From Bacilli bacterium (lineage in GTDB: Bacteria; Bacillota; Bacilli; JACDOE01), in the NCBI GenBank assembly GCA_041686735.1, contig JAWLDF010000005.1, forward strand, positions 70,029-134,028: a stretch of 64,000 nt of DNA. Direction: 5' to 3'. The translations under genes and the position numbers were made by a program. Shown here one piece after another: positions 29,846 to 33,704 of this stretch. Numbering within the stretch: the stretch's first letter is position 1; every line of letters starts with the position of its first letter. The notes under the pieces were generated by a model. The model was not told the origin of the DNA. It saw only the letters and a program-made list of their open reading frames with translations, and did not search any database.

Positions 29846-30349
29846 ATGGCAGATATCATAACCATTCAGGGAAAAGTCAAATATCCGATTACACTTGACC
29901 CCGGTGTCTGGATTTTTGATGATCGCAAAATCCCTTTGGATAACGCATTTGCAAAACAAGCCGAACAGTTGAACAAGAAAGATCAGGTAGCGGAACGGTC
30001 TCTTTCCCGGCAATGGGAACGTGAATTACAGGACCGTGCCTCTGTTCCCAGTATTCAATCGGAACAGTTGTTTGTGGAAAAGAAACAGATCCAGGGAGAT
30101 TACGTCATGCCGCTCAACATATTTTTAAGGAATGCCGAACCTGATTCGGATGCAGCAAGGGTAGTCATCCATCATGCCTCAAGGCAACAGACGATCATAC
30201 CCCTGAGGCAGGCGAAAGATGCTTTGCTCCTGTTTGCGCAGGACGGTAAACCGATCCGCGGCGAAGAAGGACCGGCCTATCTCTTATTTGGTGACGAAAG
30301 TAACCGGGACAACCCGATCAAAGGTGTGTATAAACTGGAAGTGATGTAA
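29846..30349 (+). CDS. Hypothetical protein (position equivalent to ylaL, divergent from glsA)
   Basis: 167 aa; no motifs recognized. Called from ORF length and context only. Confidence 0.45.
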   Translation: MADIITIQGKVKYPITLDPGVWIFDDRKIPLDNAFAKQAEQLNKKDQVAERSLSRQWERELQDRASVPSIQSEQLFVEKKQIQGDYVMPLNIFLRNAEPDSDAARVVIHHASRQQTIIPLRQAKDALLLFAQDGKPIRGEEGPAYLLFGDESNRDNPIKGVYKLEVM

Positions 30350-30961: not shown

Positions 30962-31141
30962 TTTGATATATCCTCCCTTTTTTAAAATATAAGCACACGA
31001 TATTATCCCCGAAAAATCGTTTTTGCTATACATTTTATTTTTTCCATATTTATCATGCGGCCCCCCTGTTTTCGCATGTGTTTTCCAGTGAGAATGGGGA
31101 AAAATACATTTCGAACACAAACGGACAGAAAGGTTGAACGA

Positions 31142-32875
31142 ATGATGAAGAAAAAACAGAAACAACGATTGATGATGTGGCTGATCCTGATCGGAGCAGT
31201 CATCGTCGCTTTTTTATGGACGGAACCGGAATACGGGTACCTCCCCGATGATCAAAACATCAGTCCATCTGCCGAAAGCAAATTGATGGGAACAAAGGCG
31301 GATTCGGACAAATTGAAACTGGGCAAAGAAACCTTTTATCGTGAAACATTCGGTAATGAAATTTTTTTTAGCGATGTGATGGGGCTATGGGACGATCCCC
31401 TGTCGCCGGGGGTGATTTTGCGTGAAGCTTATAAAGTAAGGGATACGGGAACGGATAATTTACGAATCCCCATAAATAAGACCGTTAAAATCGGAGACCG
31501 TACATTTGAAAAAAATACATATATCAACACGGGGATCGATGTTGCGAAAGGATCTTACACTCCGCTGGGGCTCACTTTTAAGTATCAGGACGGACGCTTA
31601 AAAATCGGGATGAGTTGCGCATTGTGTCATGCCACCGTCGATCACCGGGGCAGGGTGATGCAGGGAGTCCCCAATCAAAACTTGCAGGCAGGTACGCTTC
31701 TTGCTCTTGCTGCCAATTCGGCCGCATATTTTTCTCACACGGACGTTAATCCGATCCGTGAATATCTAAAGGGGGACAAACCGGTAATCGATTCCGGCGA
31801 GAAGAAAACGACGCTTCCCGATCCTGACAAAATGGAGCGTGAGGTGGATCGAGCTTTATTGCGGATGGCACCGGGAACCTTTGATATCACTCAGGATTTG
31901 ATCCACAACCCGACGGCGATTCCCGATGTTTTTACGAAGGGAGACTCCCCTTACGGATGGAACGGATTTGCCTTTGACGGTGAGATGGGAGGACTTATCT
32001 CCATGACCAGCATGATGCACAGTCAGATCTCAGATCCTCTTTCGCAGGCTACCCGGATCGCTGACAGACTGGGGATCGACAGAGAAATTTACATCGGAAC
32101 CATTCTGCAACGGGCTTCCAGTGATAAGTTGCGTCTTCGCAGTCAGTTCCCCTCCCTTTTCTGGGAAAAAAACAAACCGAAAACTGGATCTCCCGGAGTT
32201 CTAGAAGCAAAAAAATCTCCACAGTGGCCGGCAAAATCAAATCAGTATCCGGACGGACTCTTGATCGGAAGTCAAAAATTCAAACCGGGCGAACAAGTGA
32301 GGGCGCTGGCACTCTGGCAAAACTCTTTACTCCCACCCCCCTATCGCAGTCAGGTTGAAGACAAACAACGACAAAAAGAACTGGTGACACAGGGGAAAGA
32401 AATTTTTAACAGGGTAGGGTGCATCACATGTCACAGCGGGGATTTTTACAGTGACCGGCGTCGTATTTCCCTGCAGGAAATCCAGACTTCCGATCTCGCC
32501 TCCTCTCCCCTGGCGGAACTGGCCCATCCCCGGGGAAAAGGGTATAAAACAAAAAGTCTGATCGGGCTTCATTTGACCGCTCCTTATCTCCATGATAACG
32601 GAGTGGCCGCAGGATATTATAAAGGTCACTGGGGTTTGCACGGCACCCTGATGGCGCAACGTCCGGTGAATCCCGTTGCCAGTCTGAGGGCACTTTTGGA
32701 CAGAAATTGGCGCAAAAAGGTGGTGGAAGCAAACAAAAGTTCCGCTTCACTGCGTCAAACCGGAATCACCGGTGAAGGTCACCATTTCTGGGTGGATGAA
32801 GAAGCCGGATTTACCGTCGAAGAACAACGGGCACTGATCGAGTATCTTCTCTCGCTCGATCGTCCCGGGAAATAA
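31142..32875 (+). CDS. Membrane-anchored di-haem cytochrome c of the CCP/MauG superfamily, long form
   Basis: Two CxxCH motifs (CALCH, CITCH) about 270 residues apart. Peroxidase-like APYLHDNG near haem 2. N-terminal TM anchor MMWLILIGAVIVAFLW. About 577 aa. Confidence 0.7.
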   Translation: MMKKKQKQRLMMWLILIGAVIVAFLWTEPEYGYLPDDQNISPSAESKLMGTKADSDKLKLGKETFYRETFGNEIFFSDVMGLWDDPLSPGVILREAYKVRDTGTDNLRIPINKTVKIGDRTFEKNTYINTGIDVAKGSYTPLGLTFKYQDGRLKIGMSCALCHATVDHRGRVMQGVPNQNLQAGTLLALAANSAAYFSHTDVNPIREYLKGDKPVIDSGEKKTTLPDPDKMEREVDRALLRMAPGTFDITQDLIHNPTAIPDVFTKGDSPYGWNGFAFDGEMGGLISMTSMMHSQISDPLSQATRIADRLGIDREIYIGTILQRASSDKLRLRSQFPSLFWEKNKPKTGSPGVLEAKKSPQWPAKSNQYPDGLLIGSQKFKPGEQVRALALWQNSLLPPPYRSQVEDKQRQKELVTQGKEIFNRVGCITCHSGDFYSDRRRISLQEIQTSDLASSPLAELAHPRGKGYKTKSLIGLHLTAPYLHDNGVAAGYYKGHWGLHGTLMAQRPVNPVASLRALLDRNWRKKVVEANKSSASLRQTGITGEGHHFWVDEEAGFTVEEQRALIEYLLSLDRPGK

Positions 32876-32899
32876 CGTTCGTGTAAAACAAAAAAAATA

Positions 32900-33077
32900 C
32901 CCGGTCAACGGGACCGGGCAAAACACAAATAACTCTCAACCTTTACTCTCATAGTACTAAGCATATAATAAATCAACTGGAAAGACAAGGGGAATTTTAT
33001 TTGAAAACTTATTTTTTCCAAAAAAAATCCCCGCGATCTCTACGAAAGAGGCGGGGTGAAACAAAAACTCTCAACCT
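32900..33077. repeat. Two tandem hairpin-plus-direct-repeat modules in a convergent intergenic region
   Basis: Hairpins CCCGGTC-AACGG-GACCGGG (32900-32918) and CCCCGC...GCGGGG (33029-33056). On the minus strand each is followed by a U8 run. Exact 12-nt repeat AACTCTCAACCT at 32931-32942 and 33066-33077. Confidence 0.45.
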
Positions 33078-33185
33078 GTAGTTTTGTTTCTATATTTTGA
33101 AGATACACGAAAACAGGCGAAAATTCAATACGGGTTTTAATGGAAGGCTGCTCATCCTGGACAGGAAGATGATAAGTACCTGGTC

Positions 33186-33704
33186 TTAATCTCTGATCTC
33201 AAAAGGAATTTTTGATTTTTCCAGTTCACTAAAAAATTTTGTATCATTCCCATCAAATGATACAAATTGGATGATATCTCCAAAATGAATATCCACTGCC
33301 ATCCCCTGTCGTGTAAAAAATTGCAATCTGATAAAACGTCGTAAATCTAAAAGTGAGTAGAAAAACTGCCGTCTCTCACCGGTCAGCGGCGCCGTGAACT
33401 TTCGGCTGACCACCTTTTGGCCGGAACGGTTTTCAAAGACTTCAACCTGATCCGCTCCAAGAAGGGTCAGCATTTCCCGGGATTTCTCAATCCCCAATCC
33501 GGCTGCCAGTTCATAATCAGAGTACTCCACTGAAAATTCTTTTAAACTCCCGGCAAATACATCCAGCAAAAAGTAAAATAATTTTCTCACCAGTAAATTG
33601 GACGGAGACAGGTTATGCTCGGAAACGACAAACCGATACATCCTCTGCATCCCCTGTCCTTTTTCCTCGTAAGAACGATGGAAAATCAATTTATTCATGG
33701 ACAT
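33186..33704 (-). CDS. Hypothetical protein
   Basis: 172 aa ORF with no recognized family. An alternative start at internal M19 has a better RBS (AGGACAGGGG). Confidence 0.45.
   Translation of the reverse strand: MSMNKLIFHRSYEEKGQGMQRMYRFVVSEHNLSPSNLLVRKLFYFLLDVFAGSLKEFSVEYSDYELAAGLGIEKSREMLTLLGADQVEVFENRSGQKVVSRKFTAPLTGERRQFFYSLLDLRRFIRLQFFTRQGMAVDIHFGDIIQFVSFDGNDTKFFSELEKSKIPFEIRD

Follow-up and report, generated by a model that had tools for sequence, protein, structure and literature searches.

The DNA analysed here, called the window throughout, is a stretch of 64,000 nucleotides from the genome of a Bacilli bacterium (GenBank assembly GCA_041686735.1, contig JAWLDF010000005.1, positions 70,029 to 134,028). 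It carries a gene for a protein with two haem-binding CxxCH sites, which with near certainty is anchored in the membrane, lies outside the cytoplasm and belongs to the di-haem superfamily of bacterial cytochrome c peroxidase (bCCP) and MauG. An earlier note, made from the sequence alone, had placed the gene in an open reading frame (ORF) at 31055-32875. Reading of the sequence confirmed that this ORF is present on the plus strand and is uninterrupted; its start codon had to be revised. The true start is almost certainly the ATG at 31142, because the identical database protein, P0001, has 577 residues, the homologues all begin with a short K/R-rich run just ahead of the membrane helix at the position equivalent to 31142, and the sequence GAAAGG precedes this ATG. 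No ribosome-binding site was found upstream of the ATG at 31055. An exact search for P0001 matched no contig. All residue numbers refer to the 577-residue protein. The features at the 5' end of the gene are as follows.

31055..31141, plus strand: in-frame upstream extension of the ORF (29 codons), probably untranslated promoter or leader region
31128..31133, plus strand: ribosome-binding site GAAAGG, 8 nt 5' of the ATG at 31142
31142..32875, plus strand: coding sequence of the di-haem protein, 577 amino acids and a stop codon; product 100% identical to P0001 (577 aa)
31169..31219, plus strand: N-terminal transmembrane signal-anchor, residues 10-26, a 17-residue hydrophobic helix that follows MMKKKQKQR

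The single N-terminal transmembrane anchor that had been proposed was borne out: in the AlphaFold2 model it forms a helix at residues 4-27, and the same layout of a basic stretch followed by a helix is present in the homologues. Direct reading of the sequence after this helix revealed neither a lipobox nor an AxA-type cleavage site. By the positive-inside rule, everything C-terminal to the helix would lie on the outer side of the membrane. In Bacillus c-type cytochromes the haem is attached on the outer side of the membrane, and membrane anchoring is the rule. It is nearly certain that one N-terminal helix anchors the di-haem protein to the outer face of the cytoplasmic membrane.

Membership of the superfamily was established by profile comparison. 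The window protein was aligned by hhalign with a 13-sequence bCCP/MauG/MbnH alignment, in which the core of Escherichia coli YhjA was combined with 12 varied CCP, MauG and MbnH genes taken from plasmids. The match had a probability of 98.3% (E = 2.4e-14) and extended from residue 30 to 576 of the window protein, against core positions 2-292; a second run against the same alignment gave 98.8% (E = 6.5e-17), and both haem domains were covered in both runs. In agreement with this result, a search of the PDB with a broadened profile returned the bCCPs 3o5c (4.4e-10) and 1iqc (7.9e-9), YhjA (5e-6), MbnH (8e-6), MauG (approximately 2e-4 to 1e-3) and RoxA (1.8e-3). These results upheld the earlier assignment to the CCP/MauG superfamily, as a long di-haem protein that is tethered to the membrane and faces outward. 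Narrower queries reached less far. A YhjA-only profile aligned with just residues 373-489, in the C-terminal domain, at 94-95% probability; sequence-to-PDB searches reached the bCCPs through the C-terminal half only; a homologue search seeded with YhjA returned only near-identical enterobacterial sequences; and one seeded with a 46-residue fragment of RoxA returned nothing. The AlphaFold2 model had a pLDDT (predicted local distance difference test score) of 83.6 and a pTM (predicted template modelling score) of 0.86, and its best Foldseek matches were all members of the superfamily, but weak; RoxA was not within the top 50.

One other likeness was noted and judged to be coincidental. The family profile matched the heavy-metal-binding domains of CopA from Bacillus subtilis (2rml and 1p6t; GMTCxxC; E approximately 3.5e-6 to 4e-4) in the following region.

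approximately 31530-31760, plus strand: CopA-like match, residues approximately 130-205, around the first CxxC

This match was set aside because CxxCH never lacks its His in the family, the helix comprises only 4 residues and the region aligns with the haem 1 motif of the bCCPs.

The curated family models gave a different result. The earlier note had proposed searches with PF03150 and PF06537 and had named the lack of a significant hit as grounds for abandoning the assignment; read literally, that was the outcome, as neither Pfam model matched the window protein even at an E value of 10. The only curated Pfam model that was passed was the generic Cytochrom_C, with 22 bits at haem 2. PF21419 (RoxA-like_Cyt-c) gave 14.4 bits against a cutoff of 26.7, the NCBIfam model NF040606 ('di-heme cytochrome c peroxidase') gave 39.7-40 bits against a cutoff of 150, and the RoxA, RoxB and RoxC models did not match. 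A similar picture was obtained with 28 members of the family, all of which matched NF040606 below its cutoff and none of which matched PF06537, or PF03150 at an E value of 0.01; weak matches were recorded to TIGR04039 (MbnH) in 19 of them, to PF21419 in eight, to RoxC in six and to RoxB in five. The closest approaches to PF06537 (cutoff 22 bits) were those of a homologue from Nostoc sp. PCC 7120 (20.0 bits) and of a distant relative, P0253 (20.5 bits). Apart from the generic Cytochrom_C, no curated model accepts the window protein, and the homology is visible at the profile level only.

Alignment with the reference profile and with 78 full-length homologues from different species, on which all conservation counts are based, resolved the protein into a two-domain peroxidase core that carries four insertions. 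These elements, in order along the gene, are as follows.

31313..31369, plus strand: helix LKLGKETFYRETFGNEIFF, equivalent of the N-terminal 'LG..LF.D..LS' helix of bCCP (hhalign)
31352..31591, plus strand: Insertion 1, residues approximately 71-150; beta-rich sub-domain, not present in bCCP, that separates the N-terminal helix from haem 1 (hhalign gap)
31616..31630, plus strand: haem 1 site CALCH, residues 159-163 (C159, C162 and proximal His163), presumed catalytic haem
31736..31906, plus strand: Insertion 2, residues approximately 199-255 (hhalign gap)
31949..31969, plus strand: PYGWNGF, with W273, aligned with the inter-haem Trp of the bCCP/MauG FWDGR motif
32015..32035, plus strand: MHSQISD, candidate distal-pocket segment of haem 1 (H293, Q295 and D298)
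32111..32257, plus strand: Insertion 3, residues approximately 324-372 (hhalign gap)
32420..32434, plus strand: haem 2 site CITCH, residues 427-431 (C427, C430 and His431)
32540..32602, plus strand: GYKTKSLIGLHLTAPYLHDNG, 'MauG motif' region, including PYLHDNG
32582..32602, plus strand: PYLHDNG motif, residues 481-487
32621..32806, plus strand: Insertion 4, residues approximately 494-555, in place of the short sixth-ligand segment of bCCP; holds GxGH547xxWxD (hhalign)
32780..32782, plus strand: codon of His547, putative sixth ligand of haem 2 (conservation, and the parallel with PA2077, PA2078 and RoxA)

Both haem sites were present in all 78 homologues. CALCH, as part of SCALCH (157-163), aligned with the SCxSCH of the peroxidatic haem of the bCCPs, and CITCH with their electron-transfer haem. 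The two sites, which the earlier note had put about 270 residues apart, are separated by 268 residues. Because all 78 homologues have exactly two CxxCH sites at a similar spacing (257-273 residues, median 268), the two-haem pattern is not due to chance. The bCCP 'LG..LF.D..LS' helix corresponded to LKLGKETFYRETF (residues 58-70) and the bCCP 'AIA.FE.TL.TP' helix to ALALWQNSLLPP, and the haem 2 region and the PYLHDNG motif aligned directly with bCCP. W273 was found in every homologue, and in both hhalign runs GWNGFA was paired with the FWDGRA of bCCP, a correspondence by sequence alignment only. The PYLHDNG motif was located near haem 2 as had been reported, starting 50 residues past the haem 2 histidine; TAPYLHDNG (479-487) fits the pattern [ST]xPY[FLM]H[DNR]G and is near-invariant in the family. 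In bCCP and MauG this 'MauG motif' packs against the haem propionates and a Ca2+ site.

Conservation was not confined to the haem sites, as 76 near-invariant positions were spread throughout the non-haem parts of the protein. Residues conserved in at least 97% of the homologues included G61, F70, N72 and E73 in the region of the N-terminal helix, P481, Y482, L483, H484 and D485 in the motif, and H163, H431, H547, W273 and D298. In the candidate distal segment, H293 was present in 73, Q295 in 66 and D298 in all 78 homologues. The insertions, of approximately 80, 57, 50 and 60 residues, double the size of the peroxidase core; in the AlphaFold2 model, strands were predicted at residues 104-157, within and after the region of Insertion 1.

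The axial ligands of the haems were then considered. In the 13 reference sequences the sixth-ligand column of the hhalign alignment is occupied by Met (five sequences) or Tyr (eight sequences); the window protein has Ala530 at this position. Consistent with this result, and independent of any alignment to the references, no Met or Tyr after the motif was conserved in at least 97% of the homologues. The sequence GxGH547xxWxD was invariant in all 78, and distant relatives keep H547 too. His547 lies 63 residues past His484, the motif histidine. A histidine in a comparable position is known from published enzymes: in PA2077 (CAGCH130 and CAACH375, spacing 245) the motif His553 is followed by the distal His611 (+58), in PA2078 (spacing 235) the motif His543 is followed by His603 (+60), and in RoxA (spacing 199) the residues are His394 and His641. 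In BthA the ligands are His371 and Tyr463. Published members of the superfamily that have Tyr or His at the second haem (BthA, RoxA and FadCcp) carry out substrate oxidation rather than H2O2 reduction.

Haem 2 of the window protein would thus be ligated by two histidines, with His547 as in RoxA and the fatty-acid di-haem enzymes, because no Met or Tyr ligand is present, His547 is invariant and the same design is found in PA2077, PA2078 and RoxA. The N-terminal haem, haem 1, would be the catalytic one, and it would function without the bCCP-type distal His loop, which is absent from the alignment. The distal Gln column of the bCCPs corresponded to Q295 and their catalytic Glu column to D308, which is variable in the family (A, P or E); the alignment in this region is of low confidence.

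Comparison with the characterised systems placed the protein between several groups. With the bCCPs (1iqc from Nitrosomonas europaea, 3o5c from Shewanella, 2vhd from Pseudomonas aeruginosa and E. coli YhjA, 9qdt; PF03150) it shares the two cytochrome-c-like domains in the same order, the 'LG..F' helix, SCxxCH, the inter-haem Trp, the 'A..[FQ][EN].L.P' helix, GC..CH.G, the 'K.P.L..…T.PY.HDG' motif, the C-terminal 'L..[FY]L.SL' helix and an extracytoplasmic site. It differs from them in its length (577 residues compared to approximately 320-350), its four insertions, its single transmembrane anchor where the bCCPs are soluble and periplasmic, the lack of a Met sixth ligand and of a distal His loop, the unconserved Glu column and the failure to match PF03150. 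With RoxA/RoxB and PA2077/PA2078 (FadCcp) it shares the size class (approximately 600-680 residues; the window protein has 577 and members of its family typically have approximately 650), widely spaced haem motifs (199-245 residues in those enzymes compared to 268 here and 257-273 in the family) and the PY[FL]H[ND]G motif. In those enzymes a His approximately 58-100 residues past the motif is the second ligand of the C-terminal haem, and by sequence the invariant H547 of the window protein is at +63; some family members also match PF21419, RoxB and RoxC weakly. The differences are that the RoxA, RoxB and RoxC models do not match the window protein and RoxA was absent from the top Foldseek matches, that the presumed distal segment is polar where theirs is hydrophobic, and that those enzymes are secreted or periplasmic whereas the window protein is membrane-anchored; the insertions may not be homologous.

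The DHOR/DUF1111 (PF06537) and NF040606 proteins are likewise long di-haem members of the superfamily. Genes of the DUF1111 group have been described in imelysin/EfeO-like iron-uptake operons; the window protein does not match PF06537, and no such neighbours were found in the window or in 81 related loci. MauG, MbnH and BthA have the di-haem core, the motif and the inter-haem Trp in common with the window protein, together with the weak TIGR04039 matches, and differ in that the window protein lacks the Tyr ligand and a partner gene and is approximately 200 residues longer. A published similarity network of the superfamily, built on PF03150, does not include the family. The earlier suggestion that the architecture is closer to DUF1111/RoxA than to CcpA was therefore upheld in part. 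It agrees with the large haem spacing, the lack of Met or Tyr, the invariant His at +63 and the weak matches to the RoxA-like_Cyt-c, RoxB, RoxC and DHOR models; it disagrees with the best sequence matches, which were to classical bCCPs, with the position of RoxA outside the Foldseek top 50 and with the scores for RoxA and DHOR, no threshold of which was reached.

The known di-haem enzymes of the peroxidase superfamily are, to our knowledge, nearly all from Gram-negative periplasms. The chemistry already found among them includes formation of the tryptophan tryptophylquinone cofactor, rubber cleavage, fatty-acid dioxygenation and hydrazine synthesis. For the window protein, a role as a substrate-oxidising extracytoplasmic di-haem enzyme appears somewhat probable and is the most likely of the roles considered. 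Substrate oxidation is favoured because the Met ligand is missing, the protein resembles RoxA and FadCcp in size and in its pattern of ligands, four insertions are present and the catalytic Glu is not conserved. In such an enzyme the two-domain core of the superfamily would be retained, and the four insertions would probably form a substrate-binding cap. The sixth position of haem 1 (C159/C162/H163) would be open, and H2O2 or O2 would be activated there, in a pocket lined by family-conserved polar residues (H293, Q295, D298 and others). Haem 2 (C427/C430/H431) would be six-coordinate, with His547 as the second axial ligand instead of the Met of the peroxidases or the Tyr of MauG/MbnH, and would store or pass on a single electron; coupling between the haems would be provided by the invariant Trp273 together with the TAPYLHD motif. 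The protein would then oxidise or oxygenate a specific extracytoplasmic substrate, like RoxA, the fatty-acid di-haem enzymes or MauG, and would not simply reduce H2O2 with respiratory electrons.

Several observations weigh against substrate oxidation. The alignment is of low confidence near both the ligand column and the distal pocket, and the distal segment is polar (His/Gln/Asp) compared to the hydrophobic pocket of RoxA, which would fit a plain peroxidase too. The Foldseek matches to solved structures all had E values above 0.01. Gene-neighbourhood clustering of the 81 loci revealed no neighbour that is conserved family-wide. Upstream of the gene, in 74 loci, no promoter motif for sigma-A, B, E, F, G, H, K, W, M or X was enriched, nor was any Fnr, PerR/Fur, ResD or Rex site; the only enriched k-mers were of the Shine-Dalgarno type. 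A forespore-promoter-like element, GCAT-N17/18-GGnnAAAATA, which was seen in the window and in locus L001, was rejected since its spacing is wrong and it is not general.

Some of these observations bear on the main rival, a role in respiratory H2O2 reduction as the Gram-positive counterpart of a bCCP or quinol peroxidase, tethered to the membrane; this role is judged to be unlikely. Haem 2 would in that case be fed by small membrane cytochromes c or a menaquinol:cytochrome c complex, and haem 1 would turn H2O2 to water, either for detoxification or with H2O2 as the terminal electron acceptor. In its favour, the best sequence matches were to the classical bCCPs, and the inter-haem Trp and the motif are kept; the conserved distal Gln column (Q295), the polar distal segment, the membrane anchoring that is usual for Bacillus c-type cytochromes and a gene without partners, like many ccp genes, also agree with it. 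However, the Met ligand that an electron-accepting haem of high potential would have is missing, the column of the catalytic Glu varies, the four large insertions are needless for H2O2 reduction, PF03150 and the NF040606 cutoff were failed, and the upstream regions show no enrichment of sites of the PerR, Fur, Fnr, ResD or Rex type. The simpler role of a pure electron carrier, a membrane cytochrome c with two haems that would pass electrons from one respiratory complex to another or on to an acceptor outside the cell, would explain why many members bear the RefSeq name 'electron transport protein' and why Cytochrom_C was the sole curated model passed, but it is very unlikely: approximately 290 residues per haem is far above the needs of a carrier, the homology to an enzyme superfamily is full-length and includes the motif and the inter-haem Trp, the 76 near-invariant positions lie across non-haem parts, and no respiratory genes adjoin the di-haem gene. 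Still less probable is a maturase like MauG or MbnH, which would oxidatively modify a residue in a partner protein on the cell surface. The weak TIGR04039 matches in 19 of the 28 members, the presence of MbnH and MauG among the PDB profile matches and a size that could offer a protein-docking surface point in this direction; the protein lacks the defining Tyr ligand of MauG, MbnH and BthA, however, and no mauA/B- or mbnP-like partner gene is conserved beside the di-haem gene in the 81 loci. Replacement of Tyr294 of MauG by His reportedly abolished its bis-Fe(IV) chemistry, which also argues against a maturase.

A more specific form of substrate oxidation was suggested by a gene that lies downstream of some family members. 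At seven of the 81 loci (L024, L042, L045, L058, L065, L068 and L077), from at least four divergent lineages, a Zn-dependent FdhA-like dehydrogenase of approximately 380 residues is encoded 6-41 nt downstream on the same strand. These loci are from Paenibacillus (two), Metabacillus, Robertmurraya (two), Brevibacillus and one contig binned as Bathyarchaeia, and their di-haem proteins are mostly only about 50% identical to each other. The closest model for the dehydrogenase was TIGR02819, glutathione-independent formaldehyde dehydrogenase, at 175 bits, far under its cutoff. The di-haem protein could accordingly be imagined as one of a new functional class, a surface di-haem oxygenase or peroxidase of spore-forming Bacillales and filamentous cyanobacteria, with a bis-His relay haem and an insertion-built cap, that would act on a compound of the envelope or the environment by oxidative cleavage or demethylation and so release an aldehyde, for example formaldehyde, to be handled by the downstream dehydrogenase. 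This proposal as a whole is doubtful. The dehydrogenase neighbour speaks for substrate oxidation in general, but the link is found in 9% of loci only and the window is not among them, which counts against it; the neighbour is a lead, not evidence for the window.

The family to which the protein belongs is large. In a scan of one genome per species, a relative was present in at least 546 species genomes, including Bacillaceae (with the B. licheniformis group and B. methanolicus), Paenibacillaceae, Brevibacillus, Thermoactinomycetaceae and the filamentous cyanobacteria Calothrix, Nostoc, Microcoleus and Scytonema. A protein search returned approximately 50 relatives of approximately 650 residues, among them proteins of Geobacillus, Parageobacillus, Caldalkalibacillus, alkaliphilic bacilli and B. 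rhizoplanae, a relative of the B. cereus group; most are named 'electron transport protein' in RefSeq. When 1.84 billion cluster representatives were scanned in full with HMMER, 166 clusters matched at E values of 1e-30 or below, 338 at 1e-10 or below and 1693 at 1e-3 or below. Distant full-length relatives are lipoproteins of other phyla, which keep ETFGNE, the two CxxCH sites, APYLHDGG and GxGH. No study of the family was found in the searchable literature; it is seen in databases only under generic names, has no curated model and represents a family-level variant of a known superfamily. Its breadth, its lack of a model, its generic name and its membrane anchoring in Gram-positive bacteria set it apart, and it appears to use another ligand set at the second haem. 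If its substrate were defined, the surface biochemistry of Bacillus would gain an enzyme with c-type haem, and a new reaction could come to light.

The homologue of Nostoc sp. PCC 7120 (665 residues, 33% identical, E = 5e-87) is encoded on plasmid pCC7120alpha (L095, 7836-9833; positions 102084-104081 of the record) and bears the RefSeq name 'di-heme oxidoredictase family protein' [sic]. This alpha-plasmid gene is a tractable system for genetics; it adjoins genes for an NCS2 permease and a PEP-CTERM protein. The di-haem protein of L065 (DASQNU010000267.1), a contig from a metagenome-assembled genome labelled Candidatus Bathyarchaeia, shows 86% identity to its counterpart from Brevibacillus migulae (L058), and the same dehydrogenase gene follows downstream, so that the contig is probably mis-binned Bacillota sequence. 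Shorter di-haem proteins of approximately 400-456 residues, from Sinorhizobium americanum plasmid C (L096, 1636-3006) and Gemmatirosa kalamazoonensis plasmid 2 (L097), share the 'ETF.FDTFG.E' N-terminal helix and the insertion before haem 1 with the window family and fall below the curated thresholds, except for PF21419, which one of them passed. Because they share these elements and fail nearly every threshold, they suggest a wider uncurated group of related di-haem families.

Compared with its relatives, the window protein is shortened. Together with P0002, an 85% identical protein encoded on Logan assembly contig L082 in the same gene order, it lacks a segment between haem 2 and the motif.

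32525..32530, plus strand: deletion site, residues 462/463, at which a segment of approximately 44 residues is lacking in the window protein and P0002 (alignment A1)

The other aligned members have this segment (consensus ..YxPDTPVPxP..VPTxHLDxEQ..). In the shortened protein the motif follows the haem 2 histidine by approximately 50 residues, as in classical bCCPs. The window protein also departs from the consensus of at least 90% of members at 22 positions, for example R453A, G466K and G486N, which alter near-invariant residues close to the deletion. Between the window gene and the L082 copy, the ratio of nonsynonymous to synonymous substitution rates (dN/dS) was 0.078, with a dS of 1.1, and because neighbouring housekeeping genes gave similar ratios (0.01-0.14), the window copy is a selected, shortened variant and not a decaying gene. 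In other respects it is an ordinary, conserved chromosomal member of the family.

The gene is flanked by a DUF1657 gene (E = 3.9e-24) and a SpoVIF-like gene (E = 1.1e-4), both of which had been noted earlier; the second is recognisable at 22 bits, which is below the Pfam cutoff of 27. The surrounding 40 kb is ordinary chromosome, with genes for isoleucyl-tRNA synthetase, FtsW/SpoVE, a 2-oxoacid dehydrogenase, a SleB-like hydrolase, glutaminase, an M42 peptidase, fumarase, a rhomboid protein and a subtilase, and the gene order is common to just the two closest genomes. In the 64-kb window neither a ResC/CcsA WWD motif, the signature of the System II haem lyase, nor another CxxCH-bearing gene was found.

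A possible terminator and a conserved intergenic element follow the di-haem gene.

32898..32920, strand not assigned: GC-rich hairpin after the stop codon, with an A-run on the plus side and a T-run on the minus side; may be a bidirectional terminator

The intergenic region 32895-33140, between the di-haem gene and a 172-residue ORF (33186..33704, minus strand), was 96% identical to L082 (237/246), compared to 68-84% for six other intergenic regions; synonymous sites between the window and L082 were near saturation (dS 0.5-1.1). It consists of two tandem units, each of which on the minus strand comprises AGGTTGAGAGTT, a T-rich spacer, a GC hairpin and T8 and resembles a rho-independent terminator; the blocks are conserved in L001 also. 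RNA folds of the element had z-scores of -2.9 and -2.6. A search of Rfam gave only a sub-threshold match to anti-hemB (E = 0.058), and when metagenomes were scanned for its pattern, nothing beyond chance 20-mer matches was returned. The element may be a conserved 3' untranslated region, or it may encode one or two small RNAs that are specific to the lineage.

Two flanking ORFs, 29846-30349 (plus strand, 167 residues) and 33186-33704 (minus strand, 172 residues), had no Pfam or NCBIfam match. Their products were 57% and 51% identical to those of L001 and 83% and 81% identical to those of L082, respectively, with dN/dS values of 0.14 and 0.13, and they are lineage-restricted orphan proteins.

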